DNA of 64,000 bases, from the NCBI GenBank assembly GCA_964415795.1, contig CAYQBN010000001.1, forward strand, positions 212,164-276,163. Direction: 5' to 3'. Position numbers and translations under genes: made by a program. This document shows positions 488 through 26,968 of the stretch, one piece after another; within the stretch, counting starts at the first letter, position 1, and each line of letters begins with the position of its first letter. The notes beneath the pieces were generated by a model. The model saw only the letters and a program-made list of their open reading frames with translations, had not been told where the DNA came from and searched no databases. The stretch comes from an uncultured Spirochaetales bacterium. Lineage in GTDB: Bacteria > UBP6 > UBA1177 > JAKLFG01.

Positions 488-2128
488 TTACTTCTGTATC
501 TGGAAGGTGTCGATGAAGCCCATCGAGGCGCCGGTATCGCTGTTGAGTTCCACCGCCCGGAAGCTGAGGTGTGCGCCGTCGATGGTGACCGCAACATAGT
601 GAATCGCCGCCTTGGTCACCTTGACCTTGTCGGTCGTCTTCACATCGTAGAGAGTCGCACCGGCACCGGCGGTGACGATGTAGTTGACTCCATCGGCCTC
701 CGTCGGCTGCTTCACATCTCCCTTAAGCGGCACCGAGCGCTGGTAATAGTGGTCATGACCATTGAAAACCATTGTGACGCCATACTGATCGAAGACGGGT
801 GCCCATACCGCTTTGAGATCGCTGTTGAAACTGCCGCCGTGCGTAAGGTCGGTCGTTTCGCTGTAGATGGGGCGATGATGCGTGACGAAGCGCCACACGG
901 CATCGGGGAACCACTGGCTAAACACCTGATGCATGAACTGGGTTTGCTGGTCCTTGATAGAACCGTCCTTCATGAGGGCGCCGGTGCAGGCGGTGCCATA
1001 GGTGCCCCACAGCCCTGCGCCGTTCCAGCAATCGTTGATGTTGACGAACACCGCGTTACCGTAGCGGATAGCGAACCAGTGCTCATTGCCCGGCATCGCG
1101 AACTGGGCGAAATAGTTCACCGCCGACTGTTCATGATTTCCGACCACTGAGAGGATCGGCACGCTGCGCATCCATTCTTCGGCCTGCTCGAAGACATCGA
1201 ACCACTGACTCTGGGTGGTTCCTTCACTCACCCAGTCACCACCGAAACTAATGAACACCGGATCCTCGTTCTCGATCGCTGCCCTGATGGTCCGGGCGAG
1301 CCGGTCGGGGGCGCCGCGGCTGTCGCCCATCGCGACGAAGGTGAACGGCGGAGCCGGTTTGCGCGGATCGGGGGCCGTGCGGAAGTGCGATACCGGCGAG
1401 AGGTGATCAGGATCACCGACCCGATAGTAGTAGGTCGTCCCCGGCGTAAGTCCGCAGAGTTCGGCAACATGAACCGTTTTTCGGGCACTGTCGTAGGGAA
1501 GTACCCACGCCGCCCCTTCCATCGAACCGGTGTTGCTGGGGCCGGTCTCAACGCAATTCTGCGTCATTGCCTCGTCGGTGCAAGCTTTCGCGTAGGTCAT
1601 CTTTGTCATCGAGCCGGCCGAGGAATCGAGTGTGGTCCACGTAAAGGTCATCGAGATCGCCGGTTCGCTCTGCCACGAGAGGTGAACATAGCGCGGCGTC
1701 GGTGCGTCGCCGATCGTGGGGTCAGCAGGCATCGGGATGAGCGCGGCATTGCCCGTTTCACCCTGATTGGTGCCGCAGGTTGGGTCGATGATCGGCGGTT
1801 CTCCGCCATCGTCGGGCTGTTCGTTGTCCACCGGGGTTCCGTTGTCGGTCGGCGTCGTATCTGGCTGGGGTTCGGTATCGTTCGACTGAGTGCCATCGGT
1901 CGGTTGATTGTCGATCATCCCGCCGGTATCGGGCTGTTCGGTGTCGATCACTTGGCCACTGTCGGTCGGTGGAGTCGTGTCGGTCTGTTCAGCGGTGTCG
2001 GTCACGCCGGTGTGGTCGGAAGTACCGGCGGCATCGTTCTGTACATACTGCGAACTGTCCGAGACATCGCACGCAGCGGCCACAAGAGCCACTACACCAA
2101 CGAACAGCAAAAGGTACGGCATCTTCAT
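488..2128 (-). CDS. Purple acid phosphatase-like metallophosphoesterase lipoprotein with FN3-like domain and acidic Thr/Asp/Pro stalk
   Basis: Lipobox-like AAAC; motifs GDSRG, GGDWV, GNHE, THHRP, GHDH. Start moved to ATG 2128 (AAGGAGG RBS). Confidence 0.85.
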   Translation of the reverse strand: MKMPYLLLFVGVVALVAAACDVSDSSQYVQNDAAGTSDHTGVTDTAEQTDTTPPTDSGQVIDTEQPDTGGMIDNQPTDGTQSNDTEPQPDTTPTDNGTPVDNEQPDDGGEPPIIDPTCGTNQGETGNAALIPMPADPTIGDAPTPRYVHLSWQSEPAISMTFTWTTLDSSAGSMTKMTYAKACTDEAMTQNCVETGPSNTGSMEGAAWVLPYDSARKTVHVAELCGLTPGTTYYYRVGDPDHLSPVSHFRTAPDPRKPAPPFTFVAMGDSRGAPDRLARTIRAAIENEDPVFISFGGDWVSEGTTQSQWFDVFEQAEEWMRSVPILSVVGNHEQSAVNYFAQFAMPGNEHWFAIRYGNAVFVNINDCWNGAGLWGTYGTACTGALMKDGSIKDQQTQFMHQVFSQWFPDAVWRFVTHHRPIYSETTDLTHGGSFNSDLKAVWAPVFDQYGVTMVFNGHDHYYQRSVPLKGDVKQPTEADGVNYIVTAGAGATLYDVKTTDKVKVTKAAIHYVAVTIDGAHLSFRAVELNSDTGASMGFIDTFQIQK

Positions 2129-2142
2129 GGTATCCTCCTTCG

Positions 2143-3648
2143 CTATAACGCGAACTGTGCTTGTAGTATCCAACTATCGTTCCGTATCTGCGCGTTCGGC
2201 GGATAGGGAGAACCTTCACCCGGATTGAAGTTCTCGATCTCGTCACGCAAGTGGTAATCGAAACTAATCTTGATCGTGTTCTTTCTTCCACCGGGACTGA
2301 AGTAGAGGTTGAAGCCGAAGGTAGTCGTCCGCATCTTGCGATCCATCACCTTACCGATCCCCTGAGGTACGAAGGCATCCGCATCGGCAGCAGAGTACTT
2401 GTGCCCGCCGATCATCTGGTAAGGATCGAACTCCTCGTAGCGGAGCTTGAGTTCGAGATGTTCCCGGACCCAGTAGGGGATTGGAACAAAGAGCCCCGCC
2501 TGCAGATACCATCCTTCCGACTCCCACGCCGGATCGAATACCGACTGCGCCTCATATTTCTTGCTTCCGGCGCTCTGGAGGAGCACCCAACCGCCGCCGA
2601 GCGAAAGACCTTCGAATCCGATAACGCCGTCTATCGCATAGAAGTAGGCGTCTTTGTCAACATCGTAGGCCGACTCGAGATCGATGCTCTTGCCATAGTT
2701 GAATCCGATACTGCCGGTGAAGTCGCGCCAGTTCCAGTCGGTCGGCCAGTGGTCGGGATTGAATTTCCAGTGACTCTCGTTGTACTCCCCGTAGCCGAAG
2801 GGATTTATCTCGGCGCGAAGCGAATACATCGATGCGCCGTTGCGGCCCGATCCCGATTTGAAATCATAGCCGTTCTGGTAGGCAAAGTAGTAGCGGACGA
2901 TCCCCTGCGGCCATTCCTTGAACACATCGAGTTCTGGCCACGGGAAGAGATCGCCTTGGATCATCGCGCCAAAGTCGCTCCCAGGGAACGCGCCGGTTTT
3001 CTTCGAGGGATCGAACCCCTTGATGCTCATGGTCCGCTGGCGAACCGCCATCGCCTCTTCGGCGAAGAGGTGTTTCGAGCCCGACATCATCTTCTGGTAG
3101 AGGAGCGGCGCCTTGATGAGTCCTGTCCGTATCTCGGCGTAACGGACGATCGGGAAGCTGACATACGCTTCGGAGACGATACTGTCGCCGATCTTCTGGT
3201 CCCACAGGTCGAGTTCCATCTTGAAGCCGCTCCACGAAGCGAATTTCCCCGCGAAGGCCATCCGCGCCTTGTTGAGCGAGAAGACATCGACGAGGGAGGT
3301 CGGCGGCATGTTGGCGTCGTTGTTCTGATAGGTGAATCGGCTCTGAAGGTACCCCGAGAAATAGAGGTAACTCTCGTTGGTGTCGTTCGACCAGAGAATA
3401 AGTTTATCCTCCGGTAGCGGCTTTTTCTCTTTCGGTGCGTCCTTCTTTTCTTCGCCGGCCACCGTATGGGCCGCCCGTTCTTTTTCGAGCGCATCGCGTA
3501 CCGCTTCGTTCACGATGCGGCGCACCTCCTGTTCAGTGAGGGTCCGTTCGGTGTTTCTGGCGATCTCCCCGTCGTCAACGAACTCATCCTGAGCCAAAAG
3601 AAAGGACGAGAAAAGGATCGGGAGCAGAAAAAGGGAGAGATGATTCAT
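2143..3648 (-). CDS. Outer-membrane porin, phosphate-selective OprO/OprP-like
   Basis: Signal peptide, short coiled segment, then GYLQSRF...KARMAFAG...EAYV...GLIKAP pattern of porin O/P; C-terminal aromatic strand (LQAQFAL); sits between two phosphatases. Confidence 0.7.
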   Translation of the reverse strand: MNHLSLFLLPILFSSFLLAQDEFVDDGEIARNTERTLTEQEVRRIVNEAVRDALEKERAAHTVAGEEKKDAPKEKKPLPEDKLILWSNDTNESYLYFSGYLQSRFTYQNNDANMPPTSLVDVFSLNKARMAFAGKFASWSGFKMELDLWDQKIGDSIVSEAYVSFPIVRYAEIRTGLIKAPLLYQKMMSGSKHLFAEEAMAVRQRTMSIKGFDPSKKTGAFPGSDFGAMIQGDLFPWPELDVFKEWPQGIVRYYFAYQNGYDFKSGSGRNGASMYSLRAEINPFGYGEYNESHWKFNPDHWPTDWNWRDFTGSIGFNYGKSIDLESAYDVDKDAYFYAIDGVIGFEGLSLGGGWVLLQSAGSKKYEAQSVFDPAWESEGWYLQAGLFVPIPYWVREHLELKLRYEEFDPYQMIGGHKYSAADADAFVPQGIGKVMDRKMRTTTFGFNLYFSPGGRKNTIKISFDYHLRDEIENFNPGEGSPYPPNAQIRNDSWILQAQFAL

Positions 3649-5823: not shown

Positions 5824-5887
5824 GGCAATCCTCCTCGAAAAACGGGAACATGGTGCCTTCCCATCATGTGGCGATGATGAGGCGTTC

Positions 5888-5914
5888 GTTAGAATGCAAT
5901 GTAAGGACGGTAAA
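5888..5914 (-). promoter_or_regulatory. Pho-box-like 11-bp repeats (TTTAC/TACAT/CTAAC)
   Basis: Minus strand TTTACCGTCCT TACATTGCATT CTAAC upstream of the phosphatase-porin operon; the middle unit is degenerate. Confidence 0.5.
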
Positions 5915-5915: not shown

Positions 5916-6818
5916 TTATGCCGCCCGAATCACCTGCGATGGCGATGAAACCTCGAATTTCGCACCGACTTGACCGTTCAACTTGTCCATGTCGAGCAGG
6001 GTGAGGAAATCGGCACAGCGGAAGTGACGGTCGATTATCGGTTCGCCGAGCACCGTGGCTCCTGCTTTAAGATAAGCCTTGAGAAGTGGCGGTATAAGAG
6101 CCTTGGCGTGTTCCTCGTCAATGCCACCGATCGAGGAGACGAAGCGATAGTAATCATCGAACTGACGAATACGGAATTTCCGGTTCGGCTGGGCGTGCAC
6201 GACACCATTTCCCGCATGATAGACTGAAAAATAACCGTGGAGCGCAACGAGATCATCCATGTCCATCGTCTTGATGCTCGAACAACCGAAGAGCCATTGC
6301 GCACCAGTATGTTTGGCATATTCGGCGATCCCCTTCCACAACAGAAGAATGGCGGCACCGGTGCGATGATCGGCATGGACGCAGGCGCGTCCCAACTCGA
6401 CCTTGACTCCCGGCAGTTGGAGTATCTCTCTGATGTTGAATTCGGTTGCCGTGTAGAAGTTGCGCGTGAACAGCGAACAGTTGAACCGGTACGTACCAAC
6501 GCAGGCACCGCTTTCCCGGTCTATGAGCATGAGGTGATCGCACTTGAGATCGAATCGGTCGAAGTCGAGTCCGAGCGGGTGACGGATGTGGAGCAGTTCC
6601 TCGTAGAACACCGCATGTCGGAGCAAGAGAACCTGCCGCAGATCATCGCCGTTCTCGGCCATCTTAACCGTGTAACGCTTATTTTCCAGCAAGAAGCGGA
6701 CATGCGGCCGGTAGCGGTCGAGTTGCGCATCGATGCGAGACACCACGAATTTGCGGGCGATCTGCCCGACGAGCGGCATCGAGAACGGGGCTTTCTTCAT
6801 CGTGAGCGTCGTGCTCAT
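5916..6818 (-). CDS. GNAT-fold N-acyltransferase, OlsB-like (ornithine/amino-lipid synthesis)
   Basis: LRHAVFYEEL, DRFDLKCDHL, VGTYR, ELGRACV, IPPLLKAYL..GA...GEP..D..F...D pattern typical of the OlsB/Acetyltransf_5 family. Confidence 0.75.
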   Translation of the reverse strand: MSTTLTMKKAPFSMPLVGQIARKFVVSRIDAQLDRYRPHVRFLLENKRYTVKMAENGDDLRQVLLLRHAVFYEELLHIRHPLGLDFDRFDLKCDHLMLIDRESGACVGTYRFNCSLFTRNFYTATEFNIREILQLPGVKVELGRACVHADHRTGAAILLLWKGIAEYAKHTGAQWLFGCSSIKTMDMDDLVALHGYFSVYHAGNGVVHAQPNRKFRIRQFDDYYRFVSSIGGIDEEHAKALIPPLLKAYLKAGATVLGEPIIDRHFRCADFLTLLDMDKLNGQVGAKFEVSSPSQVIRAA

Positions 6819-6879
6819 CAGACACCTCCATTTACCTTTCTATAACGGAGGAAACATCGTCCCTTCGTATTGTCGCATG

Positions 6880-6906
6880 ATGAAAGGCGTGTTGAAAAAC
6901 GGTGAA
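6880..6906 (-). promoter_or_regulatory. Pho-box-like 11-bp repeats (TTCAC/TCAAC/TTCAT)
   Basis: Minus strand TTCACCGTTTT TCAACACGCCT TTCAT upstream of the OlsB-like gene. Confidence 0.55.
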
Positions 6907-6916
6907 AAGTGAAGGA

Positions 6917-7618
6917 TCATCGTATCTTCACCGTCTCGTACCAGAGCGTTTCGGTGTCGAGAATGACCCCCTGAAAGCGCCCCATCGAGCAGGAGCCGCA
7001 GTTGAGGTAACGCTTCTTTTTATTGAGGTAATAGGTCTTGTGGTATTCGATCTTGTGGGTGTGTCCCAGTATCACCACATCGTACTTCCTCAAAAGGCCG
7101 AGCGCATAGTTAAGGTATCGGAACGAATTATACTTTCGCGGTATTCGATGGATCTCGTCATCGAACGCGATCGCCGCACGATAGAGTTTCTTGAACCACT
7201 TGAAGCGGCACATTGCCTTGATAAGCAGATACATCCACCGTCCGAACAGGCGCCCGATACGGGTGCCGTTCAAGAAATCGGCGTTGTGTCCATGTTCGAT
7301 GTAGATCGTTTGACCGCCCGCGTTACGAATGAGGAGATGGTCTTTGCCGAAATTGTTGAAGATATCGTGATTGCCCCGGATATAGATCGGCTTTTTCGAG
7401 TAGAGATAGGCGAGCAGTTCACGGTTGTGTTCGACTATCTCCGTAAAATCCCATTTGTAGAGTTCATAGATGTCGCCGTTGAGAACGATCATCTCCACCT
7501 TGTACTGCGCAATGACCGATTCCATCGTGGCAATGAACTCGGTAGGGTGCCAGCCGAAGATGTCCGATCCATCCTTCGGAACACCGAGGTGAAGGTCGGA
7601 GATGACCATGATTTGCAT
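6917..7618 (-). CDS. Calcineurin-like metallophosphoesterase, LpxH/PlcP-like
   Basis: ISDLHLG, NGDIYE, RGNHD, EHGH, LGHTH motifs. Likely start ATG 7618 (MQIMVISD), 1 nt after the upstream stop. Confidence 0.8.
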   Translation of the reverse strand: MQIMVISDLHLGVPKDGSDIFGWHPTEFIATMESVIAQYKVEMIVLNGDIYELYKWDFTEIVEHNRELLAYLYSKKPIYIRGNHDIFNNFGKDHLLIRNAGGQTIYIEHGHNADFLNGTRIGRLFGRWMYLLIKAMCRFKWFKKLYRAAIAFDDEIHRIPRKYNSFRYLNYALGLLRKYDVVILGHTHKIEYHKTYYLNKKKRYLNCGSCSMGRFQGVILDTETLWYETVKIR

Positions 7619-7619
7619 G

Positions 7620-8981
7620 CTACACTCCGAGGGGGCGTTCTCCGGGCGAAAACTTTCCCGTCGCGACGACCTCTTCGATGAAGTAGGTGCCCTTCTTGCG
7701 TCCCTTGAGAAAACCGTTCCACGCCGCTTCGGCAAGCCGTCCCTTCCGACGGAGATCAAAGAGCCACTCGTTACAGTACCGTGCTGGCCCGGGCATCTTG
7801 AAACCGGCCCCCATCTCGCGGACCCAGCGGCGGTTCTGTTTCTCGTGGTACCCGACCGGCTGAGAAAAGATGATGGGAATGCCGAGCGCGCAGTAGAACG
7901 ACAGTTCACTCGGTTTGGTCCAGAGAACATCGACTTCTCGAAGGACTCGGTTGAATGCGGCGAAGTACTCGTCGTAGCCGGCGCCCCAAACGATCCTGAC
8001 CGCATTGTCGAGTCGGTATACCCCCGTTTCGACGAGATAAGACTCGAACTGCCGCTTTACCGACCTACTGACGCCTGCTGAAAGAAGCAGCCGTACCTTG
8101 CCTCCTTCAATGAACGGAATGAGCGCAGTCAAGATGTCGCGCGTCATTGCCGCCTGCGTACCCGAACCGCCGACCGCAAAGAGAAGCGTCAAATGATCGC
8201 GCCGTCGGAGCGGTATCTCGCGATCTCCGAGAAAATGGCGCACCTCTCGCTCATGGAGAGGGAAAAAACGGTTGTCGGGATCGAGCCGGATCAGGCGCTC
8301 AAAGAGGTCGTCACGGAGGATCTCGAGATGCTCCTTGCTCCCCAAGCACTCTTTCGGAAGCGGAAATCCGGTGAGATGGATTCGTTCCTCGGGGACGCCA
8401 TAATTTTTAAGACGGCGTACCACATTGGCACACGGTGCACAGTAGTGAAGGGCGCTCCGCGCGGGGTCGCGCGGCACCCAGACACGATTGACGTCACTGT
8501 CGGTGACGAGCACGAAGGTCGGTTGCTCGCGGCTCCCAAGTGCATCCTGTGCGAGCGCCGTAGCAAAGAAGGTGTGGATCGAGGGGAGCGGTCGCTCCCT
8601 GATACGACGAATGAGGCTTGCACCAAGCCCCCGGAATCGGATGAGAAAATCAACATACCGGAGACCGATCGTTGGTCGCGATAGATCACGCGAGGGGTAG
8701 CGCGGTGGAATACGGAACAACCAATCGAGGAGAGCAAAAAGCCAAGGTCCGATGATCGGAACATCGAGTGCCCGTGAGAAAAGGTAGTAGAGCCGACGTG
8801 TCCGCCGCAACGCCCGGGCCTCGACGGTATCGGTTATCGTTTCGTCGCCATAGACGATCGTTTTTCCTTCCTCAGCGAGGTCACGGAGGGGGTAAGCGGC
8901 ACGAAGATGGCCGAGACCCATCTCGACCGAGATGACCCACGCCTTGGGAGAGGTATCAGTTTTCGTACTCGAGTCCGCCAT
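7620..8981 (-). CDS. GT-B fold glycosyltransferase-like protein resembling GT28 (MGDG synthase/UgtP-like)
   Basis: N-terminal MGLGHLRAA, VTD, TGFP, AVGGSG, LWTKPSEL and ALGIPII...HEKQN elements paralleling GT28 signatures. Start set at MADSS (8981). Confidence 0.55.
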   Translation of the reverse strand: MADSSTKTDTSPKAWVISVEMGLGHLRAAYPLRDLAEEGKTIVYGDETITDTVEARALRRTRRLYYLFSRALDVPIIGPWLFALLDWLFRIPPRYPSRDLSRPTIGLRYVDFLIRFRGLGASLIRRIRERPLPSIHTFFATALAQDALGSREQPTFVLVTDSDVNRVWVPRDPARSALHYCAPCANVVRRLKNYGVPEERIHLTGFPLPKECLGSKEHLEILRDDLFERLIRLDPDNRFFPLHEREVRHFLGDREIPLRRRDHLTLLFAVGGSGTQAAMTRDILTALIPFIEGGKVRLLLSAGVSRSVKRQFESYLVETGVYRLDNAVRIVWGAGYDEYFAAFNRVLREVDVLWTKPSELSFYCALGIPIIFSQPVGYHEKQNRRWVREMGAGFKMPGPARYCNEWLFDLRRKGRLAEAAWNGFLKGRKKGTYFIEEVVATGKFSPGERPLGV

Positions 8982-10128
8982 CGGGTACCAGAGCGATGAG
9001 AGAATCCTTTTCAACGGTAATGGTACGTCCGCGCCACCGGACACGGCGGGTCACAAAGGGAGAAAGGTAGATGATGAACGAAAGGATATCCTTGACCACC
9101 ACGACCATCGGAAAAACGAGCAGTGTCCGCCACGACGGCCGTTCGTTGGGCTGAGAGAGCGCGTTGATATATTCGAGCACCATCTTGACGACCGTCGCGG
9201 TCACCAAAAGGAGCATCCCGCTCTTGCCGAGAAAAGGCACAGACACCAGCGACCACACGATCGGGTGCATGAGCACTTCCGAGAGATACAGTTTCGGTTT
9301 TATCTGAAACCGCATCACCGCCCAGCGGCTCATCCGATCGTAGAAGGAACGGAGCGAACTGTCGCGGTTCACGTTCTCGGCGGGAGTGAAGTTGGTCGAG
9401 ACCCGGAGATTCTTCTTCCGGAAGAGAAGCCCCATCATGTAATCCTCGGCAAGATAAGGCTCAAAGGGACGAAACCCGCCGAAGTGTTTCTCGAGCGCTT
9501 CCCGCTCGATGAGCAGTGACTTGCCGATGACGATCGGTATGCGGAACAGGCGCCACGCGGCGATGAGATTGCCGGTGATGTAGTAGTTGAGATAGGCGTT
9601 CTCGACGAGTGCGCCGAAGGTGCGCGCGCCAGTCGCCGTGATAGGACAGAACACTAGTTTAGTGCCATTGAGAAGGTACTCCTCCACAAGACGCGAAAGC
9701 GTATCGGGAGACACCCTTACATTGGCATCAGCTATCCAGTAGAGGTCTCCCGTCGCGTGCCGTTCCATCTTGGCGAGGTTATCTACCTTCGGATTGAGCG
9801 GCTTATCGGTGCCGGTAACGAGGATGAGCGTGCGAATGTGCGGATACCGCACCGCGACTTCGCGGATGACCGGCACCGCCGGATCGTTCTCGGTCTCGAC
9901 GGCGAAGAGGACCTCGAAGTTCGGGTAATCGCTTCTGTAGAACGACTCGATGTTCTCGGCGAACGGGCCATCGGCGTTCTTCACCGGTTTGAGGATCGAC
10001 ACTCGCGGCAGACGGTCATCTTTCAACCGTTCCTTCTTTTCTAACGAGCGCACGCTACGCGGTCCCACCGCATAGAAAGAGAGAAGAACGAACGGCGCGA
10101 ACACTACGATCATCCAAAAAAGGAGCAT
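8956..10128 (-). CDS. Glycosyltransferase family 21 (ceramide glucosyltransferase/HpnI-like)
   Basis: N-terminal TM, VSILKPV, NPKVDNL, ADANV, GKSLLI, LAEDY, RMSRW, C-terminal TMs. Start ATG 10128 with GAGGAGG RBS. Confidence 0.8.
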   Translation of the reverse strand: MLLFWMIVVFAPFVLLSFYAVGPRSVRSLEKKERLKDDRLPRVSILKPVKNADGPFAENIESFYRSDYPNFEVLFAVETENDPAVPVIREVAVRYPHIRTLILVTGTDKPLNPKVDNLAKMERHATGDLYWIADANVRVSPDTLSRLVEEYLLNGTKLVFCPITATGARTFGALVENAYLNYYITGNLIAAWRLFRIPIVIGKSLLIEREALEKHFGGFRPFEPYLAEDYMMGLLFRKKNLRVSTNFTPAENVNRDSSLRSFYDRMSRWAVMRFQIKPKLYLSEVLMHPIVWSLVSVPFLGKSGMLLLVTATVVKMVLEYINALSQPNERPSWRTLLVFPMVVVVKDILSFIIYLSPFVTRRVRWRGRTITVEKDSLIALVPDGGLEYEN

Positions 10129-10169: not shown

Positions 10170-10207
10170 ATCAGAAGCGCATGAAAGAATGATGAGCGCC
10201 CGGTGTG
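10170..10207 (-). promoter_or_regulatory. Pho-box-like 11-bp repeats x4 (CACAC/CTCAT/TTCAT/CTGAT)
   Basis: Four units at exact 11-bp spacing (10203, 10192, 10181, 10170) facing the lipid operon. Confidence 0.6.
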
Positions 10208-10250: not shown

Positions 10251-10277
10251 CACACCGTTCGCTAACCGTTTCTTAAT
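10251..10277 (+). promoter_or_regulatory. Pho-box-like 11-bp repeats (CACAC/CTAAC/TTAAT)
   Basis: CACACCGTTCG CTAACCGTTTC TTAAT upstream of the porin-phoB operon; nearly identical to the pstC-proximal unit CTAACCGTTCG. Confidence 0.65.
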
Positions 10278-10350
10278 GTTTGGCCGCTCAAAATCCTCAC
10301 TGTTTTATGACCGTTTTCTGATAACCGATTGACTAAAAACGGAGGAAAAG

Positions 10351-11736
10351 ATGAATGAAACGCTAACGCGATTGTTGGGAACGGGGCTTCTGCTCGGCGC
10401 TCTTGCCTTGGGAGCACAGGAAACGACATCGCCGGAGGACCAAAAAGCGGATGGCACAGCGGTCTCCAGCGAATCTGCACCCGCCACTGAGCCGGCCAAG
10501 GAAGATCCTGACTCCGCCTCTGTTCCCACCGGGGCAATCCCAGTCGATGTGAAAAAGGAACCCGACTCTGCCTCTGGCTCCGCCGGGGTAAAGAAAGAGG
10601 AACCTTCGGTGCCCGACTGGGTGAAGAATCTCAAATTCAAGGGCGACTTCCGGTTCCGGTATCAGTACCAGAACTTCGAGGACGCGGTGAAGGACGATAC
10701 GCTCGAGCGCAATCGTCTCCGCTACCGGGCACGGCTCGGGCTCGACGCGAAGATCAACGACTGGGCGAAGGTCAACTTCGGTCTCGCGTCGGGATCTTAT
10801 GAAAGCAAGATAACGCCCGACCAACTGGCGTCAGGAAAGGACATCAAGGCGTCGCTCGGGCAGGATCTCCGCTCGACCAACCAGACCTTCGACGACTTCT
10901 TCAGCCATAAGCCGGTCTGGATAGACTACGCCTACGCCGAGTTCATGCCGTGGTCGTGGCTGACGCTTTCGGGCGGCAAGATGAAGAATCCCTTCCATAC
11001 CGCCTCGGAACTCATCTGGGACGGCGACATCACGCCGGAGGGCGCGGCGCTCCAGTTCAAGTATGCGGTGATCGACGAACTGTCGCTTCTCGCCAACGCC
11101 GGTATCTTCATCCTCGACGAGGTAAAATCGCTCACCGATCCGATGATGGCGGTCGTGCAGGCGGGCGCGGTGCTCAAGGTTGGTGACTTCGACGCCACCG
11201 CGACCCTTTCCTTCTACGATCCAATGAACCTCATGAACGCCGAGACGAACACGAGCGAAGGATCGAAGATGCGCGACTATGTCTCTCAAGGGTACTATTG
11301 GAAGAATCTCGCCGCGGCGCTCGACGCTTCCTACACCATTAAAGATAAGTATCAGATAGGGCTCATGGGCGAACTCACGGCGAACCTCTACGACCTCAAC
11401 AAAGATGCGCTCGGTGCGAAGGCCAACGATACGGTCGCCTTCTTCGTAGGCATCAAGGGCGGCACCAAGGCACTCAAGGACCTCGGCGACTTCCAGAGTT
11501 CGCTCTCCTACCGACAACTGGGCATCGCATCGTGGATACCGTTCCTCATTGAGTCTGATCCCTTTGACGGCAATGTGAACGCCGAGGGCATCAAGTTCGA
11601 TGTGAAAGCGGGGCTCTACAAGAACTTCTCGTTCGCCGCGACGCTCAACTACTTCTGGACGCTCGACAAGAAGTTCAACTCCGACAAGCGCAACCGTGAT
11701 CTTCTGCTCCAACTCGATCTCAACTACAAGTTCTGA
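10351..11736 (+). CDS. Putative outer-membrane porin
   Basis: Signal peptide, low-complexity linker, LKFKGDFRFRYQ...RLRYRARLG...IWIDYAY-like pattern, C-terminal LQLDLNYKF. Confidence 0.75.
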   Translation: MNETLTRLLGTGLLLGALALGAQETTSPEDQKADGTAVSSESAPATEPAKEDPDSASVPTGAIPVDVKKEPDSASGSAGVKKEEPSVPDWVKNLKFKGDFRFRYQYQNFEDAVKDDTLERNRLRYRARLGLDAKINDWAKVNFGLASGSYESKITPDQLASGKDIKASLGQDLRSTNQTFDDFFSHKPVWIDYAYAEFMPWSWLTLSGGKMKNPFHTASELIWDGDITPEGAALQFKYAVIDELSLLANAGIFILDEVKSLTDPMMAVVQAGAVLKVGDFDATATLSFYDPMNLMNAETNTSEGSKMRDYVSQGYYWKNLAAALDASYTIKDKYQIGLMGELTANLYDLNKDALGAKANDTVAFFVGIKGGTKALKDLGDFQSSLSYRQLGIASWIPFLIESDPFDGNVNAEGIKFDVKAGLYKNFSFAATLNYFWTLDKKFNSDKRNRDLLLQLDLNYKF

Positions 11737-11778: not shown

Positions 11779-11826
11779 ACTTCCTCTATACTTTTCGTAT
11801 GGTAAGCAAACCTTTGGGAGGTGCCC

Positions 11827-12522
11827 ATGGCTCGCGAACGAATCCTTGTGGTGGACGATGAGCAGGACATTCTCGAACTCATCCGCTACAACCTGTCGCG
11901 GGAAGGCTATCAGATCGAAACGGTGACCACCGGTGAAGAGGCGATAAAGGTCGCCCGCGATCGTCATCCCGACCTCATCATCCTCGATCTCATGCTCCCC
12001 GGCATAGACGGCCTCGATGTCTGCCGCCTGCTCAAAGGCGAGACGCGCACGAGCGACATCCCCATCATCATGCTCACCGCGAAAGGGGAAGAGAGCGATG
12101 TCGTCGCCGGTCTGGAGCTCGGCGCCGAGGACTATATGACCAAGCCATTCAGCCCTAAGGTGCTCATCGCACGGGTCCGCAACATCCTGCGGCGCAAGAC
12201 ACGGAGCGCCGAGGAGAAGGAGGTCAAGATCATCGTCATCGAGAACATGAAGATAGACCCCTCGAAGCATAAGGTCACCATCGGGAAAGAAGACATAGAC
12301 CTCACCGCGACCGAATTTTCCCTGCTTCTCTTCCTCGCCAAGCGGCCCGGCTGGGTCTTCACGCGCAGTCAAATAATCACCGGCGTCAAGGGCGATGACT
12401 ATCCGGTGACCGACCGCTCGGTCGATGTCCAGATACTCAATCTGCGCAAGAAACTGGGCAAGATGGGCGACTACATCGAGACGGTGCGCGGCGTCGGCTA
12501 CCGGTTCAAAGAGTTGACCTGA
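11827..12522 (+). CDS. phoB: OmpR/PhoB-family response regulator
   Basis: VVDDE, LDLMLPGIDG, MLTAKGEE, GAEDYMTKPF, winged helix RSVDVQI...IETVRGVGY; pst/phoU/phoR context. Confidence 0.85.
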   Translation: MARERILVVDDEQDILELIRYNLSREGYQIETVTTGEEAIKVARDRHPDLIILDLMLPGIDGLDVCRLLKGETRTSDIPIIMLTAKGEESDVVAGLELGAEDYMTKPFSPKVLIARVRNILRRKTRSAEEKEVKIIVIENMKIDPSKHKVTIGKEDIDLTATEFSLLLFLAKRPGWVFTRSQIITGVKGDDYPVTDRSVDVQILNLRKKLGKMGDYIETVRGVGYRFKELT

Positions 12523-12993: not shown

Positions 12994-14400
12994 TTAGTGC
13001 GTCGGCGCGGGTTCACCCGCCTGCAGGTCGGCGAGCCGATCGGCGTATTCCTTCTTGAGCGCGGCGACCTTCTCGATCGCCTTCTCGTATTCCTCGGCGA
13101 AGGCGACCCATTTCTGTTCGTAGCCTTTCTTTATCTCAGCGATCTTTCGGTCATAAACCGTCTCGTACTCCTTCTTCACGGAGGCGAGTCGGGCGAGCGC
13201 TGCGTCGTATTCCTCTTTCCACTGGGCGATGCGGTTCTCGATGAGCGTCTTCCGTTCACCGATGGCGGCGGCAAGCCGTTCCCTGAACTTGGCGAACTCA
13301 TCCTGATAGAGGGTCACCATGGCCATCTCGTACTGATCCTTGAGCTCAGCGACGAGTTCCCGTACTGGGACGATCTTCTCTATGCGCCACGCATTGCTTC
13401 CGCAGAAGGCGAACCCATCCTTCATCTCCCCTTTCCGTGCATTATTGAGCGCCTCGGAAATGCAGTACTGGGCCTCCCGCGCATTGCAAGACTCCAGACA
13501 GCGCCACGGGCAGCGGAAGTCTTTTCGCTCGCCACGTGCGACCTCGACAAGGAAATCGTTACGAATGGCACGACCCGGCATCCCAACGGGACTCTTGATA
13601 ATGATGATGTCTTCCGCGCGACAGGAGACATAGGCCTCCTTGAACCGACGGTCCGCGTCGCATTCGTCGGTAGCGACGAAGCGGGTCGCCATCTGGACCC
13701 CCGCCGCGCCGAGGCGGAGGATGCGCTGAATGTCGTCGCCGGTATAGATGCCGCCGCCCGCTATGACCGGAACGGGGCGTTCGAACCGTTCCGCGAACTC
13801 CTTCACCGCAGCGATCACCTCGGGAAGTATCCTCTCCAGCGCGTATGCCGGATCGTCTATCTGTTCTATCTTGAAGCCAAGATGACCGCCTGCCTTAGGA
13901 CCTTCGACCACAACGGCATCGGGTATATCGCGGTAGTGCTTCTCCCATGAACGGAAGATGAGGTTCGCAGCACGTCCCGACGAGACGATGGGAACCACCT
14001 TGACCTTCGCGGCGCGCAACGCGGCGACCGGAATATCCTTTATCGGTAGACCGGCGCCGAGGAAGACGACATCGGGTCGCTCCTCGACGATGACGCGAAG
14101 CATATCCTGAAAGTCGTTGACCGCCACCATCAAGTTGACACCGATGATACCTTGGGAACGCTTTCGCGCCGCTCGTATCTCGCGTCGTAGAGCGCGAATG
14201 TTCGCCTCGCGTCCGTTCTCACGATAGTCGGGCTCCATGAGGCCAATGGCATTCGCGGCGATGACGCCGATGCCACCTTCATTGGCGACGGCGGAGGCGA
14301 GGCCGGAGAGCGATATGCCGACCCCCATGCCGCCCTGAACGATGGGAAGCGTCGCGGTCGAATCACCGATGGTCAGCGTGGGCATCGAGAAAAAGCGCAT
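12994..14400 (-). CDS. Nitronate monooxygenase-family (NMO/FabK-like) flavoprotein with a C-terminal coiled-coil tail
   Basis: PIVQGGMGVG, GAGLP, VEGPKAGGHLG, PVIAGGGI, GVQMATRF, SPVGMPGRAI. Start ATG 14400 with AGGAG RBS. Confidence 0.85.
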   Translation of the reverse strand: MRFFSMPTLTIGDSTATLPIVQGGMGVGISLSGLASAVANEGGIGVIAANAIGLMEPDYRENGREANIRALRREIRAARKRSQGIIGVNLMVAVNDFQDMLRVIVEERPDVVFLGAGLPIKDIPVAALRAAKVKVVPIVSSGRAANLIFRSWEKHYRDIPDAVVVEGPKAGGHLGFKIEQIDDPAYALERILPEVIAAVKEFAERFERPVPVIAGGGIYTGDDIQRILRLGAAGVQMATRFVATDECDADRRFKEAYVSCRAEDIIIIKSPVGMPGRAIRNDFLVEVARGERKDFRCPWRCLESCNAREAQYCISEALNNARKGEMKDGFAFCGSNAWRIEKIVPVRELVAELKDQYEMAMVTLYQDEFAKFRERLAAAIGERKTLIENRIAQWKEEYDAALARLASVKKEYETVYDRKIAEIKKGYEQKWVAFAEEYEKAIEKVAALKKEYADRLADLQAGEPAPTH

Positions 14401-14488
14401 GAGAGACTCCTGAAGACTGATTGGTAAGGAACACCTTAGTAAGTATGGCGTGATATGCAATAAAATCGGAACGATTTCCTGACCCGGT

Positions 14489-15721
14489 CTATTCGGTTGG
14501 TTTCTTTTCCGGAGTCGGCGTCGCTTCGGGAGCCGGTTGTGATGCCGGTTCGGCGACGGGTTCTTCGGCCGGCTTTTCTTCTGTGGCTGGCGCCTCGGCC
14601 GGCTTCGCCTCGGGTGCTGGGGCGGGCGCTTCGGCCGGTTTCGTCTCTGGTGCCGGCGCAGGCGCTTCAGCCGGCTTCGTCTCGGGAGCGGGCGGATTCT
14701 CGGGCACCTCCTTCTCGAACGAGTAGCGGAACGAGACAAGCAGGTTGTTCTGTATCTGCCACTCCTCGCTCACCTGCGTCTGGCGTACGACCGAAAGGCG
14801 GTAGCCGACCGAAAGCCACGGCGCCACCTCGACCCCGAGGTTCGCACCGAAGGTGTAGTTGGTCAGGTCGCCTGCGCTCCGTTTCTGCGGGTCGTCATAG
14901 ACGAACGGCACGAGGATATCGGCGGTCGCGCCGTAGGTGATGGGTGCCTTCAGCGTGTAGGTCCCGCCGAGCATCGCGGCGAAGGCGGCGCCGAGCTGGT
15001 TGAAGCTCTCCACCTGCGTGAGCGGTATCCGTCCGGTCGCCGCATCCTTAGCGCCGGCGATGTAGACCTCGTCGGCGACGACATGGAGACCGCCGAGACC
15101 GGCGCGCAATTCGATCTTGAGCCAGTCGCGCGTGAGCGGCTTCACAAACAGACCGACCGATTCCGACATCTTGATGGGGTCGAACGAGCCTGATATCTTG
15201 AGTTTGTCGAACGGGGCGACGGTGGTGCCGTCGGGAAAGATGTAGTATTCGGGACGCAGGGTGTTGAGGAAGCCGTCGAAGAGCTGAGTCTCGAAGTGGA
15301 ACCGCGCAAAGGGGCCCCAGAGGTTTTCGTGGATGTTGTAGAGGTAGATCGCGTCGAACGCCAGTTTATCGGCGCTCTTTATCATCCGCTCGAGGTCGGG
15401 GGTGTAGCTGAACTGTTCGTCGACGAGTAGAGCGGTTCGCACTTCGTGGTTGAGTTTGTAGTACTCGAGCTTGGTGTCAAGATTGAGCCCGATGAGGAAC
15501 GAGGTGCCGGTCGTTTGGCCAACCACATCGCGGTTGTCGGTGAGCGAGAAGTTCACGCCGGTGCCGATCGCGAAGAAGAGCCGGTCGCCCTTCTTGGCGT
15601 CGGCGGTCGATGTCGGGACGGCGGTCGCTTCCTTGGCGGCGTCGGTCTCCTCCTCGGCCTGCGCCATGGCGGCGAGCAGAAGACCGCAACAGATGAACAG
15701 GACGACGAGATAACGCTTCAT
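14489..15721 (-). CDS. Outer-membrane beta-barrel protein (DUF3078-like) with Pro/Ala/Glu-rich C-terminal tail
   Basis: Signal peptide, alternating beta-strand pattern ending NNLLVSFRYSF, then a PAE-rich tail. Confidence 0.55.
   Translation of the reverse strand: MKRYLVVLFICCGLLLAAMAQAEEETDAAKEATAVPTSTADAKKGDRLFFAIGTGVNFSLTDNRDVVGQTTGTSFLIGLNLDTKLEYYKLNHEVRTALLVDEQFSYTPDLERMIKSADKLAFDAIYLYNIHENLWGPFARFHFETQLFDGFLNTLRPEYYIFPDGTTVAPFDKLKISGSFDPIKMSESVGLFVKPLTRDWLKIELRAGLGGLHVVADEVYIAGAKDAATGRIPLTQVESFNQLGAAFAAMLGGTYTLKAPITYGATADILVPFVYDDPQKRSAGDLTNYTFGANLGVEVAPWLSVGYRLSVVRQTQVSEEWQIQNNLLVSFRYSFEKEVPENPPAPETKPAEAPAPAPETKPAEAPAPAPEAKPAEAPATEEKPAEEPVAEPASQPAPEATPTPEKKPTE
14588..14693 (-). repeat. 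About 36-bp imperfect tandem repeat x3 encoding PETKPAEAPAPA
   Basis: Seen directly in DNA and protein. Confidence 0.85.
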
Positions 15722-16786: not shown

Positions 16787-17815
16787 CTACTTCCACACCG
16801 GCTGGCCGGCTGCCTTAAGTTCCTTCTTCCACGCCGCCTGCACGAGGTCTATGAGCGTCTTCGGCAGTGGGACATAGTCGAGTGCCTTGGCCGCCTTGTC
16901 GCCATTCTTCAGGCACCAATCGAAGAACTTGAGCATCGTCTGCGCCTTCGCGACATCGGGCATTTCCTTATAGATAAGGATGTAAGAAGCGCCGACGACC
17001 GGCCAGCTCTGGTCGCCCGGCTGGTCGGTGAGCACCATGTAGAAGCCCTTTGCGTTCGCCCAGTCGGCGTTCGCCGCGGCGCTCTGGAAGGTGTCGATGG
17101 AGGGGGCGACGAACTTGCCCGCCTTGTTCTTGAGTTTGGTGTAGGTCATCTTGTTCTTGAGGGCATAAGCATACTCGACATAGCCGATCGAGCCGCCGGT
17201 CTGCTTGACGAACGCGGCAACGCCCTCGTTGCCCTTGCCGCCGACACCGGTCGGCCAGTTGACCGCCTTCGCGTTACCGACCTTGCTTGCCCAGTCGGCG
17301 CTCACCTTGGTCAGGTAGTTGGTGAAGATCCAGGTAGTGCCGGAACCGTCGGAGCGGTGAACCACGACGATCTTCTGGTCGGGGAGCGCGACGCCCGGGT
17401 TTTCGGCCGCGATCTTCGGGTCGTTCCACTTCTGGATGTTCCCGAGGAAAATTTGTGCGAGCGTTTCGCCCGACAGTTGCAGTTTCCCCGCCTCGATACC
17501 CTTGAGGTTCACCACCGGCACGACGCCGCCGATGACCATCGGGAACTGAAAAAGTCCCGCCGCGTTGAGCTCCTCCTCCTTGAGCGGTTCATCGGATGCG
17601 CCGAAATCGACCGTTTTCGCCTTGATCTGCGCGATGCCACCGCCCGAGCCGATCGACTGGTAGTTGAGCTGCATGCCGGTGACCTTGTTGTAGTCGTAAG
17701 CCCACTGCGAGTAGATGGGGAACGGGAAACTCGCCCCTGCGCCGTTGATTGTCTCGCCCGCCGAAAGCATGGCGAACAAAAAGGTTGCGCCGAGTACCGT
17801 AAGTAACCTCTTCAT
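16787..17815 (-). CDS. pstS: Phosphate ABC transporter substrate-binding protein
   Basis: GAGASFPFP, NYQSIGSGGG, DFGASD, RSDGSGTT, GKGNEGVA, IGYVEYAY. Confidence 0.95.
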   Translation of the reverse strand: MKRLLTVLGATFLFAMLSAGETINGAGASFPFPIYSQWAYDYNKVTGMQLNYQSIGSGGGIAQIKAKTVDFGASDEPLKEEELNAAGLFQFPMVIGGVVPVVNLKGIEAGKLQLSGETLAQIFLGNIQKWNDPKIAAENPGVALPDQKIVVVHRSDGSGTTWIFTNYLTKVSADWASKVGNAKAVNWPTGVGGKGNEGVAAFVKQTGGSIGYVEYAYALKNKMTYTKLKNKAGKFVAPSIDTFQSAAANADWANAKGFYMVLTDQPGDQSWPVVGASYILIYKEMPDVAKAQTMLKFFDWCLKNGDKAAKALDYVPLPKTLIDLVQAAWKKELKAAGQPVWK

Positions 17816-17892
17816 AGTGTCCTCTCCTCGTTGTGTTATCAAAAACCCTCCGGCGCACCGGCGCCGGTCGGTGAGAGAAGTATGGCCGCTTT

Positions 17893-17919
17893 GTTAAGAA
17901 ACGGTGAAGGTAGTATGAG
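17893..17919 (-). promoter_or_regulatory. Pho-box-like repeats facing pstS (CTCAT/TTCAC/TTAAC)
   Basis: Minus strand CTCATACTACC TTCACCGTTTC TTAAC, 11-bp period. Confidence 0.7.
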
Positions 17920-17952
17920 AATACGGCAAACAAAGAACGAATTGTCGGCCAA

Positions 17953-17979
17953 TTAACGGTTTGCTAACCGTTCGTTAAC
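17953..17979 (+). promoter_or_regulatory. Pho-box-like repeats facing pstC (TTAAC/CTAAC/TTAAC)
   Basis: TTAACGGTTTG CTAACCGTTCG TTAAC, 11-bp period. Confidence 0.75.
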
Positions 17980-18028: not shown

Positions 18029-18985
18029 GTGCAGGTCGTCAAGCGATACTTCACAGAGCATTTCGAGTCGCTGTTCAAGTGGTTCACGATCTGCTGTGCC
18101 GCGCTCGTGCTTCTCATCATGGCGGCGATGTTCCTGCAACTGGTCTGGAACGCGCGGCTCGCCATCGGGCACTTCGGGATCTCGTTCCTCTGGACCGACC
18201 AGTGGGATCCGGCGACCCATCAGTACGGCGCCCTTTCGAGCATCTACGGAACGCTCGTCTCGACCATCATCGCCATGGTCATCGCGGTCCCGATGAGCGT
18301 CGTCATCGCCCTCTTTCTCGTCGAGCTCGCTCACCCCGTTGTCGCGAAGATCGTCGGCACCGCGATAGAACTGCTCGCCGCGATCCCGAGCATCATCTAC
18401 GGTATGTGGGGACTCTTCGTCTTCGCCCCGATCATGGCAGAGAAGGTGCAGCCATTTCTGCAAGAAACGCTCGGCCTCGAGAAGGTTCCCGGCATCGGAA
18501 AACTCTTTACCGGCGCTCCGATGGGGATCGGCATGCTTACCGCGGGACTCATCCTCGCGCTCATGATACTGCCGTTCATCAGCGCGGTTATGCGCGATGT
18601 CTTCGCGATGGTTCCCTCGGTCGTCAAGGAGTCGGCCTACGGGATGGGATCGACGACATGGGAGGTGACTCGCAAGGTGACGCTCCGTTACGGCATCCAA
18701 GGCATCATCGGCGCCTGCTTCCTCGGGCTCGGCCGCGCGATCGGCGAGACGATGGCGGTCACCTTCGTCATCGGCAACGCCCACAACATTTCGCTTTCGC
18801 TCTATGATCCCGGCAGTTCGATCGCTTCGACGCTCGCCAACGAGTTCGCCGAGGCATCCGAGCCGATCTACCTCCATTCGCTCATCTACCTCGGGCTCGT
18901 GCTCCTCGTGATGACCTTCGTCATTCAGGTGCTCGCCCAGTGGTGGGTGCGGCGGCTCAAGAAGAGCATGGGGGCGGGGCTGTGA
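18029..18985 (+). CDS. pstC: Phosphate ABC transporter permease
   Basis: [34 protein letters not shown]. Confidence 0.95.
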
Positions 18986-19830
18986 AGAAGGCCGACAACA
19001 TCCGCCGGCGCGAGGCACTCAACCGGACGGTAAGCGTTCTCTCGGGACTCGCCGCGCTCGTCGGCATCTTCTTCCTCGGCTGGATACTCTGGACCGTCAC
19101 GCGACAGGGTCTCGCGGCGTTCGACCTCGAGTTCTTCACGCAACTGCCAGCGCCGCCCGGCATCGAAGGAGGCGGTCTCGCCAACGCGATCGTCGGCACG
19201 GTGCTCATCACGCTCCTCGCGACGCTGATGGGCGTTCCGTTCGGTCTTTTCACCGGTGTCTATCTCTCCGAGTTCGGGAAACATTCCCGTTTCGGCGATC
19301 TCGTCCGGTTCACAATGAACATCACGATGGGAGTCCCCTCGATCATCGTAGGTCTCTTCGTCTATACGATCCTCGTCCTGCCGGTGGGACATTTTTCGGC
19401 CTATGCCGGCGCGGTCGCGCTCGCCATCATCATGCTGCCGGTCGTCGCACGGACGACCGAGGACATGCTCGGGCTCGTTCCGAATGCGCTCCGCGAATCG
19501 GCGCTCGCCATCGGCATGCCGCGCTGGCGCATGATCGTCGCGATACTCTTCCGGGCGGCGCGGTCGGGCCTTCTCACCGGCATCCTGCTCGCCGTGGCGC
19601 GGGTCTCGGGCGAGACGGCGCCGCTCCTCTTCACCGCGATGAGCAGTCCTTACTGGATGAAGGGTCTCGCCGAGCCGACGGCCAATCTTACCGTCACGAT
19701 ATTCAACTACGCCATGAGCCCGTTCGACGATTGGAAGCAACTTGCGTGGGGCGCCTCTCTGCTTATCATGGCGGCGGTGCTCGGCGTGAACATCGCGGCG
19801 CGTGTTCTGTTAAAGGAGAAGAAACGATGA
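18982..19830 (+). CDS. pstA: Phosphate ABC transporter permease
   Basis: [35 protein letters not shown] start overlaps the pstC stop (GTGA). Confidence 0.95.
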
Positions 19831-20621: not shown

Positions 20622-20633
20622 AGGGAGGTTACC

Positions 20634-25695: not shown

Positions 25696-25704
25696 GGGAG
25701 AAAC

Positions 25705-26956: not shown

Positions 26957-26968
26957 AGGAGTGATCGC

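Follow-up and report, generated by a model that had tools for sequence, protein, structure and literature searches.

A candidate PhoB-controlled membrane-lipid renovation operon in an uncultured Spirochaetales bacterium, with DUF6938 as a probable second-step glycolipid glycosyltransferase

Does a compact cluster of four genes serve to rebuild the membrane lipids of an uncultured, outer-membrane-bearing bacterium when phosphate is short? The cluster lies near one end of a 64,000-nucleotide stretch of DNA, here called the window, from an uncultured Spirochaetales bacterium (assembly GCA_964415795.1, contig CAYQBN010000001.1, positions 212,164 to 276,163 of the forward strand). It encodes a membrane glycosyltransferase of family 21 (GT21), a protein of the DUF6938 family, a metallophosphoesterase (MPE) and an N-acyltransferase of the OlsB/GlsB/GluB family. 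Phospholipid replacement under phosphorus scarcity is well documented in Proteobacteria, cyanobacteria and plants. For the large phyla that live without oxygen in sediments, peat and digesters, most of them uncultured, the responsible genes are, to our knowledge, not known. The module is best explained as a PhoB-controlled operon for membrane-lipid renovation, a reading whose probability is put at roughly 0.6.

All four genes lie on the minus strand. GT21 and DUF6938 overlap by 26 nucleotides (nt), DUF6938 and MPE are 1 nt apart, and 98 base pairs (bp) separate MPE from the OlsB-like gene, exactly as described in an original prediction made from the sequence alone. The families named there (GT21, a GT-B protein, a metallophosphoesterase and an OlsB-like enzyme) agree with Pfam and NCBIfam models (PF13506, PF22053, PF00149/PF12850 and PF13444). 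The divergent porin-phoB pair is likewise present, as a PF16930 porin and a PhoB-like regulator matching TIGR02154. A gene-neighbourhood survey found the module syntenic in related lineages: the order GT21, DUF6938, MPE, OlsB-like gene and phosphodiesterase gene, with a divergent porin upstream, recurs in contigs of four out of four (L082; L085 with L087; L086; L088). Overlap and gap lengths are identical in these contigs, and their DUF6938 proteins are 67-74% identical to that of the window. The phoB gene lies beyond the porin in L082, L085 and L087, that is, in both lineages whose contigs extend past the porin. L086 has a cut, unannotated gene where phoB is expected, and L088 is without a regulator gene beside the porin. 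Gene content and synteny are direct observations, as are the protein folds, the motifs and their conservation given below. Because gene order, spacing and the divergent porin recur in four related lineages, the arrangement is not a chance juxtaposition.

GT21 is the best-precedented and most ordinary part of the module, because Pho-boxed GT21 enzymes (Pgt) and plcP-GT21 operons have already been described. Pgt of Agrobacterium tumefaciens and Mesorhizobium loti is a GT21 enzyme with a predicted Pho box; it glycosylates diacylglycerol, making di- and triglycosyl-diacylglycerol under phosphate deprivation (PMC3972451, PMC8231724), and accepts ceramide as well (PMC3972451). The original prediction had regarded the GT21 member as the unfamiliar one, a place that belongs instead to the DUF6938 protein. 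The window enzyme scores 117.6 bits on the family model PF13506 (cut-off 21.7). Its translation has hydrophobic N- and C-terminal segments (membrane anchoring), and its start is fixed both by comparison with relatives and by a GGAGG ribosome-binding site. Over 339 amino acids (aa) it shares 28% identity with the plcP-linked GT21 of plasmid pRsa, with which its GT-A motifs ADAN, LAED and RMSRW (RxxRW) align. Identity as HpnI was considered and rejected (TIGR03472, 200 bits against a cut-off of 310); the pRsa enzyme scores alike on this model, at 183 bits. The window GT21 is proposed to be Pgt-like and would transfer the first sugar onto diacylglycerol.

The DUF6938 family is large. It has more than 2,600 matches in a 90% identity database, none of them named, and 885 clusters at E<=1e-3 among 1.84 billion representatives; no published mention of DUF6938 was found in the literature searched. 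The window protein gives a partial 30-bit match to diglucosyl-diacylglycerol synthase (sequence-level match PRK13609). Its AlphaFold2 model (mean confidence, pLDDT, 84) has a GT-B fold, and the best structural matches include MGD1, MurG and WaaG. The only Protein Data Bank (PDB) sequence match of the family profile is the processive diacylglycerol glucosyltransferase UgtP (9wde, E=4e-7). That alignment is colinear over three segments, namely GxGH, a central segment and TKP..E, and the residues G22-x-G24-H25 and K356-P357-x-E359 are invariant in the family. A comparison of the DUF6938 profile with a single GT28 sequence by hhalign gave no match. Because the PDB profile search matched UgtP, this null is attributed to the shallow one-sequence template, not to lack of homology. 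The GT28-like motifs claimed for the protein are thus borne out by their colinearity with UgtP, but no Pfam GT28 model passes.

Gene neighbourhoods were compared at 80 DUF6938 loci in species-representative genomes of Aminicenantes, Elusimicrobia, Fibrobacterota, Ignavibacteria, Spirochaetes, Bacteroidales and others. The gene adjoins a GT21, GT28 or GT4 gene in 59 of them. It directly follows GT21 in 46 and is preceded by a GT4 gene in 2; in 11 a genuine GT28 gene of the monogalactosyl-diacylglycerol (MGDG)-synthase type, matching both PF06925 and PF04101, comes directly after it. Fourteen loci have an assessable context without a GT21, GT28 or GT4 neighbour. These three families are the ones known to make glycoglycerolipids (PMC8231724). 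Since the partner is interchangeable among them, DUF6938 would be the constant second step of glycosyl-diacylglycerol synthesis. One protein of a representative library, P0362 (837 aa), holds GT21 (residues 99-272) and DUF6938 (residues 396-828) in a single polypeptide; this may be a true fusion, but a frameshift where the two genes normally overlap, or a sequencing artefact, could produce it too. From gene adjacency and this one fusion protein, DUF6938 is probably a second-step glycolipid glycosyltransferase. GT21 and DUF6938 appear to act in succession within a single glycolipid pathway, and the up to three classes of phosphorus-free lipid once envisaged for the module are not indicated. Genes of pst or phoU type lie within 10 kb of DUF6938 at 15 of the loci, and the MPE family at 9. 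Several Aminicenantes carry pstSCAB-phoU about 0.2-1.4 kb after the GT21-DUF6938 pair, once with one unannotated gene between.

The third gene would supply the substrate. The metallophosphoesterase motifs DxH, GD, GNHD, HGH and GHTH are all invariant in the MPE, which is without a signal peptide (motif I begins at residue 8). A lid of about 55 residues, an insertion at residues 120-176 with three helices rich in aromatic and basic residues, lies between HGH and GHTH. The best full-length fold matches are LpxH structures, at a template modelling (TM) score of about 0.55 and 14-16% identity. By sequence the protein does not cluster with true LpxH, and that identity was rejected: it scores 15.3 bits on PRK05340 (cut-off 134), TIGR01854 is not reported, and a PDB sequence search found no LpxH match. 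The description 'LpxH-like' therefore holds for the fold and not for the sequence.

Comparison with the phospholipase C PlcP used two MPE genes that directly precede GT21 on plasmids pRsa of Fuscovulum blasticum and p2 of Gemmobacter fulvus, which are PlcP-type by arrangement and are not verified PlcP. BLASTP aligns the window MPE with the pRsa protein at 24% identity over 96 aa, and hhalign aligns residues 2-113 only. The LpxH models give 38-50 bits for the two plasmid proteins against 15 bits for the window MPE. Of the earlier label 'PlcP-like', the core motifs and the LpxH-like helical lid stand, and full-length similarity to PlcP-type proteins does not. On both plasmids (L095 3012-6238 on pRsa; L096 3072-6249 on p2) the order is MPE, GT21, VTT-domain protein and small GT2. 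The arrangement resembles the published plcP-Pgt type, and the Rhodobacterales annotations 'UDP-2,3-diacylglucosamine diphosphatase' and 'ceramide glucosyltransferase' are probably misleading.

The MPE thus forms a family different from PlcP with a similar architecture, one that, like DUF6938, is not known to have been studied. Its gene neighbourhoods suggest lipid work: homologues follow the GT21-DUF6938 pair in Fibrobacterota and in one Acidobacteria metagenome-assembled genome (MAG), DUF6938-GT28 in one Bacteroidales MAG, and a GT28 MGDG-synthase-like gene in Acetobacteroides. In some Bacteroidales the family stands alone. In the window, the MPE is an operon partner of candidate diacylglycerol-consuming lipid synthases under a Pho-box-like array, as is the case for PlcP. 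By analogy, it is proposed to be a PlcP-like phospholipase C that supplies diacylglycerol.

The fourth protein scores 88.7 bits on PF13444 (cut-off 22.4) and falls below the cut-offs of the NCBIfam OlsB equivalog models (127 bits against 350, and 108 against 320). The OlsB family includes ornithine, glycine and glutamine enzymes, and olsB and olsF are Pho-regulated in Sinorhizobium meliloti and Serratia (PMC12971839). Because the scores lie below the OlsB cut-offs and the family is multi-specific, ornithine specificity is not implied; the enzyme is proposed to perform the first step in the synthesis of an aminolipid. The nearest named relatives occur in Chitinivibrionales, Fibrobacterota, Chitinispirillum and Chrysiogenes. 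In the cultured Chitinispirillum and Chrysiogenes (loci L092 and L093) a PF01553 O-acyltransferase gene comes next and overlaps it by 4 nt, the classical olsBA/glsBA layout; in L097, too, a PF01553 gene comes directly after the OlsB-like homologue. In Chrysiogenes arsenatis (L093 6001-9934) a 762-aa GT4 protein is encoded next, so that aminolipid and glycosyltransferase genes are linked again.

The strongest evidence that the four families may work together comes from an independent lineage in which all of them recur, rearranged. In L097 (6501-13827) the order GT21, DUF6938, MPE, HAD, purple acid phosphatase stands beside a convergent OlsB-like-PF01553 pair. The HAD-family enzyme might dephosphorylate released headgroups, and TTAAC-N6-CTAAT-N6-ATCAT repeats lie upstream of this GT21.

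Regulation is the remaining element. The original prediction reported 11-bp repeats upstream of GT21 and of the OlsB-like gene. The former, three Pho-box-like units, are clean and conserved. Their core bases are invariant in five related sequences when the GT21/porin intergenic regions are aligned, and the alignment leaves CTCAY-N6-nTSAT-N6-CTGATA as the minus-strand consensus. A stricter repeat pattern has two matches in the window, both in the 222-bp GT21/porin region and one on each strand. In 64 kb, YTVAY-N6-YTVAY-N6-YTVAY is matched exactly three times where 0.12 matches are expected, a count that no shuffle out of 100 attained; these sites lie upstream of GT21, pstS and pstC. The pstS and GT21 upstream regions align colinearly, and the pstS array (CTCAT-N6-TTCAC-N6-TTAAC) stands at a similar distance from its start codon. 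When a 22-mer from the pstS/pstC intergenic region is used as a probe, the best non-self match in the window (18/22; maximum of 16 in 30 shuffles) is a second conserved box pair in the GT21/porin region, TTAAGAAACGG TTAGCGAACGG.

The array that faces the porin contains TGACCGTTTT, one of two exact TSACCGTTTT matches in the window. The other lies in TTTTCACCGTTTTTCAAC, upstream of the OlsB-like gene, where 18 bp are invariant in five sequences between variable flanks; the block there matches the pstS box probe at 18 of 27 positions. As a regular 11-bp array, 6880-6906 was rejected, since its unit spacings are 10 and 12 bp, though it is strongly conserved. An inverted pstS-type box, ATCATCGTATCTTCACCGTCTCGTACC (6916-6942, plus strand; 20/27 against the pstS probe, shuffle maximum 19), occupies the last MPE codons and faces this block, and the two could form a palindromic site. 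A possible CTAAC-N6-CTCAT-N6-CACAT array at 5866-5892, before the phosphodiesterase gene, is poorly conserved. Scanning the intergenic regions for sigma-70 promoters and terminators yielded no usable calls, and tRNA and Rfam scans gave no matches. Direct repeats at 11-bp periodicity thus lie upstream of the module and are common to the pst genes, by a pattern that is partly post hoc. This coincidence is what a Pho box would give, and we infer from it that the module is phosphate-regulated.

Table 1. Features of the module, its putative regulatory sequences and its surroundings (window coordinates).
Feature	Position	Strand	Evidence and remarks
GT21 membrane glycosyltransferase, 390 aa	8956-10128	-	PF13506 E=5e-34
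DUF6938 protein, 453 aa, divergent GT28-like GT-B enzyme	7620-8981	-	PF22053 alone
Metallophosphoesterase (MPE), 233 aa, cytoplasmic, with helical lid	6917-7618	-	PF00149 / PF12850
OlsB/GlsB/GluB-family N-acyltransferase, 300 aa	5916-6818	-	PF13444 E=5e-25
Pho-box-like array CTCAT-N6-TTCAT-N6-CTGAT	10170-10196	-	three units at 11-bp spacing, 42-68 bp before GT21 ATG
Second conserved box pair TTAAGAAACGG TTAGCGAACGG	10255-10276	-	plus-strand reading points towards porin gene; conserved in relatives
Array CTCAC-N6-ATGAC-N6-CTGAT-N6-TTGAC	10296-10333	+	11-bp spacing; faces porin-phoB operon
Conserved block TTTTCACCGTTTTTCAAC...TTCAT	6880-6908	-	upstream of OlsB-like gene
pstS/pstC divergent promoter	17893-17979		two triple arrays at 11-bp spacing: 17893-17919 (-), 17953-17979 (+)
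Lipoprotein type I phosphodiesterase / nucleotide pyrophosphatase, 721 aa	3658-5823	-	PF01663 E=4e-28; lipobox ...LLFGAC at N-terminus
Signal-peptide protein, 501 aa, assumed beta-barrel porin without supporting test	2143-3648	-	no Pfam match
Purple-acid-phosphatase / PhoD_N-type metallophosphatase	488-2173	-	PF16656 + PF00149; start codon uncertain
Porin_5 outer-membrane porin	10351-11736	+	PF16930 E=2e-31; divergent from GT21; syntenic in relatives
PhoB-like OmpR-family response regulator	11821-12522	+	best NCBIfam match PhoB TIGR02154, 255 bits vs cut-off 296
pstS	16787-17842	-	PF12849 E=4e-41; internal reference for Pho promoter
pstC, pstA, pstB, phoU, PhoR-like histidine kinase	18029-23056	+	PF00528 twice, PF00005, PF01895, HAMP/PAS/HisKA/HATPase_c

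The surroundings of the module are of the same kind (table 1). Downstream, on the same strand, the phosphodiesterase gene is syntenic in relatives. The 501-aa signal-peptide gene starts 9 bp after it, and the acid phosphatase gene overlaps the end of this porin-like gene; the purple-acid-phosphatase family is likewise found downstream in relatives and in L097. About 7 kb from the module on its other side, pstS faces pstC, pstA, pstB, phoU and a PhoR-like kinase gene. With phosphodiesterase, porin-like, acid phosphatase, porin-phoB and pst genes around it, the module is thus embedded in a Pho island that, by predicted gene content, takes up the first 23 kb of the window.

Other parts of the window are of a different character. 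A type I restriction-modification system occupies 23757-33391 (hsdM 23757-25283, hsdS 26969-28273, hsdR 29490-32687), and among its genes lie those for a helix-turn-helix/IrrE-M78 protein (25705-26793), a DUF3800 protein (28270-29493) and a YgjP-like metallopeptidase (32654-33391). Its G+C content of 46-52% suggests that it is probably an acquired island. A polysaccharide or O-antigen-type cluster at 50079-59390 (GT2, GT4, hexapeptide acyltransferase, Wzy-like protein, methyltransferase and Wzx-type flippase) has a G+C content of 40-46%, against about 58% elsewhere. On the minus strand, the longest open reading frame (ORF) at 12994-14739 is nitronate-monooxygenase-like (PF03060) and its first 90 or so residues are almost all Arg, Pro and Lys. 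This stretch is probably untranslated, the true start likely being an internal Met before RFFSMPTLTIGD; the protein has a long C-terminal tail rich in Glu, Lys and Ala. Two further minus-strand genes, 38549-40360 and 40556-42358, encode a Laminin_G_3/DUF4215 protein adjoining an OPT-family oligopeptide transporter. Large ORFs without any Pfam match lie at 33571-34956, 35867-37636, 43650-44978 and 45405-47825.

The renovation operon would operate as follows. (i) Under phosphate shortage, phosphorylated PhoB would bind the 11-bp-spaced arrays in the GT21/porin region, as well as the conserved block that precedes the OlsB-like gene. (ii) It would thereby activate the minus-strand unit from GT21 to at least the OlsB-like gene, a transcription unit that probably runs on through the phosphodiesterase, porin-like and acid phosphatase genes. 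(iii) The lid-bearing cytoplasmic MPE would strip the phospho-headgroup from phospholipids as PlcP does, leaving diacylglycerol and freeing phosphorus. (iv) The integral-membrane GT21 would add the first sugar to diacylglycerol, as its homology to Pgt suggests. (v) The peripheral, GT28-like DUF6938 enzyme, to judge from the coupling of the genes, would add a further sugar or sugar acid to the glycolipid. (vi) The OlsB-family acyltransferase would N-acylate an amino acid, and an O-acyltransferase encoded elsewhere would complete the phosphorus-free aminolipid. (vii) Finally, the downstream exported phosphodiesterase, porin and phosphatase would scavenge external phosphorus. The general outline given in the original prediction, in which phospholipid is degraded and a phosphorus-free glycolipid and aminolipid are built, fits all that was found, with enzyme activities and regulation as predictions.

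Several results weigh against the renovation operon. The first concern the DUF6938 protein. In Pfam it matches PF22053 alone at E<=0.01, the GT28 models PF06925 and PF04101 falling below threshold. Its top fold matches include UDP-GlcNAc 2-epimerases, which have a GT-B fold and are not transferases (5enz, 7vyy, 1f6d and 3ot5, with Foldseek E-values equal to that of MGD1). The protein could then be a GT-B-fold sugar-nucleotide enzyme, for example a WecB/MnaA-like epimerase, that makes its partner's donor, and the headgroup would carry a single sugar. Strict pairing with a complete glycosyltransferase would suit donor supply too. This explanation is nonetheless unlikely. At the sequence level DUF6938 matches only diacylglycerol glycosyltransferases, UgtP over three colinear segments and PRK13609, and one donor maker for three unrelated partners is less natural than a common second step.

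Other results concern the acceptor and the source of diacylglycerol. The best curated match of GT21 is HpnI, below threshold, and Pgt accepts both ceramide and diacylglycerol (PMC3972451), so that homology does not fix the acceptor. The MPE aligns with the PlcP-type proteins retrieved over its N-terminal 110 or so residues alone, and orthology with them was rejected; it stands outside the PlcP/LpxH sequence family. GT21 and DUF6938 might accordingly glycosylate ceramide, a hopanoid or another envelope lipid, with the MPE as an unrelated phosphorus-salvage phosphodiesterase, for which its solitary occurrence in some Bacteroidales also speaks. We consider this improbable. The HpnI score is far under its cut-off and similar to that of the plcP-linked enzyme of pRsa. 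Where GT21 is absent, the partner is a GT28 enzyme of the MGDG-synthase type, which points to diacylglycerol, and the loci examined showed no genes for hopanoids or sphingolipids. The aromatic and basic lid of the MPE is lipid-enzyme-like, and its gene repeatedly adjoins those of diacylglycerol-type glycosyltransferases.

Less probable still is that the four genes serve the constitutive synthesis of envelope lipids and are no more than neighbours of Pho genes, with the repeats as ordinary promoter elements or chance: most GT21-DUF6938 loci of other phyla show no pst genes within 10 kb, sigma-70-type promoter and terminator calls are of no help in defining transcription units, and the PhoB-like regulator is slightly under its curated cut-off, but the divergent porin is kept in four related lineages and phoB in both whose contigs reach far enough, pstSCAB-phoU follows the gene pair in several Aminicenantes, and the triple-repeat pattern matches pst and GT21 promoters only, with a pst-derived probe picking the same GT21 region. 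Because 65 of the 80 DUF6938 loci, whether or not a glycosyltransferase gene adjoins DUF6938, show no pst gene within 10 kb, the glycolipid may be made constitutively in many lineages. The repeat patterns were defined after the same promoters had been viewed, and only part of the matches are independent. Homologues of the OlsB-like and phosphodiesterase genes were sought at the 80 loci and none was found; the aminolipid link is therefore specific to the lineage of the window, L097 excepted. As the original prediction had noted, no OlsA-type (PF01553) acyltransferase occurs among the window ORFs scanned.

A broader proposal goes beyond the renovation operon and is more tentative, at somewhat less than even odds. 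In it, DUF6938 represents a glycolipid glycosyltransferase family, new and widespread, that would extend monoglycosyl-diacylglycerol received from interchangeable GT21, GT28 or GT4 enzymes. Paired with a lid-bearing MPE family unrelated by sequence to PlcP and LpxH, it would be a non-orthologous substitute for the PlcP-Agt/Pgt system of Proteobacteria. The system would be carried by anaerobic lineages, for the most part uncultured, among the Aminicenantes, Elusimicrobia, Fibrobacterota, Ignavibacteria, Spirochaetes and Bacteroidales, and, if this proposal is true, they are sources of the phosphorus-free glycolipids of anoxic sediments and peat. The locus offers a concrete gene set for lipid replacement outside the known groups. 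DUF6938, with about 900 representative clusters, gains a specific predicted role as a second-step glycolipid glycosyltransferase, and the MPE adds a second metallophosphoesterase family, unrelated in sequence to PlcP, as a candidate intracellular phospholipase C. Confirmation would turn the module genes into markers of phosphorus stress and of glycolipid origin in metagenomes and environmental lipidomics.

How does the module compare with known systems? Two-gene pairs for a first and a second sugar are known as MGS/DGS in Acholeplasma and BgsB/BgsA in Enterococcus; in these, as by prediction in GT21-DUF6938, two lipid glycosyltransferase genes stand side by side. Like LpxH, the MPE has a metallophosphoesterase core and, between HGH and GHTH, an inserted helical lid; it differs in its GNHD motif, where LpxH has GNRD. 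With UgtP of Bacillus subtilis and plant MGD1, the DUF6938 protein has in common the GT-B fold, GxGH, a central TD..W..tG.P and the C-terminal TKP..E. Unlike these GT28 enzymes, it belongs to a discrete family with an extra helical region at residues ~50-120. The OlsB-like protein has the PF13444 domain of OlsB/OlsA, GlsB/GlsA and GluB systems, and OlsB is its best curated match; its gene differs in sitting in a glycolipid/Pho unit, with no O-acyltransferase among the window ORFs scanned. Pgt and the window GT21 are both membrane enzymes of the GT21 family (PF13506) with an upstream predicted Pho box, a comparison that takes the plcP-linked pRsa GT21 (~28% identity) as a stand-in and not authentic Pgt. 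Pgt is processive alone, whereas the window GT21 is tightly coupled, and in one database protein fused, to a second enzyme.

The closest parallel to the whole is the plcP operon. PlcP of S. meliloti, Phaeobacter MED193 and SAR11 HTCC7211 is encoded in plcP-glycosyltransferase operons with Pho boxes (types 2, 3 and 5 of Sebastian et al.; PMC4796936), and an order in which Pgt-type glycosyltransferases come after plcP has been described (PMC4796936, section 13). Both units are preceded by Pho boxes, or by Pho-box-like repeats in the window, and combine a cytoplasmic metallophosphoesterase with known or, here, predicted diacylglycerol glycosyltransferases that include GT21. The logic would also be shared, phosphorus being freed from phospholipid and diacylglycerol reused. 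In the window, however, the order is reversed, the glycosyltransferases coming first, the MPE is of a different family, and DUF6938, as the putative second transferase, takes the place of Agt or a small GT2. The unit adds an aminolipid gene and exported phosphorus-scavenging genes, and its host lies outside the Proteobacteria. Lipid renovation under Pho control, with PlcP and glycosyltransferases as its enzymes, is thus already established (PMC3972451, PMC4796936, PMC8231724). New are the DUF6938 partner, the non-orthologous lid-bearing MPE, and the combination of glycolipid, aminolipid and exported phosphorus-scavenging genes in one apparently PhoB-controlled, non-proteobacterial unit.

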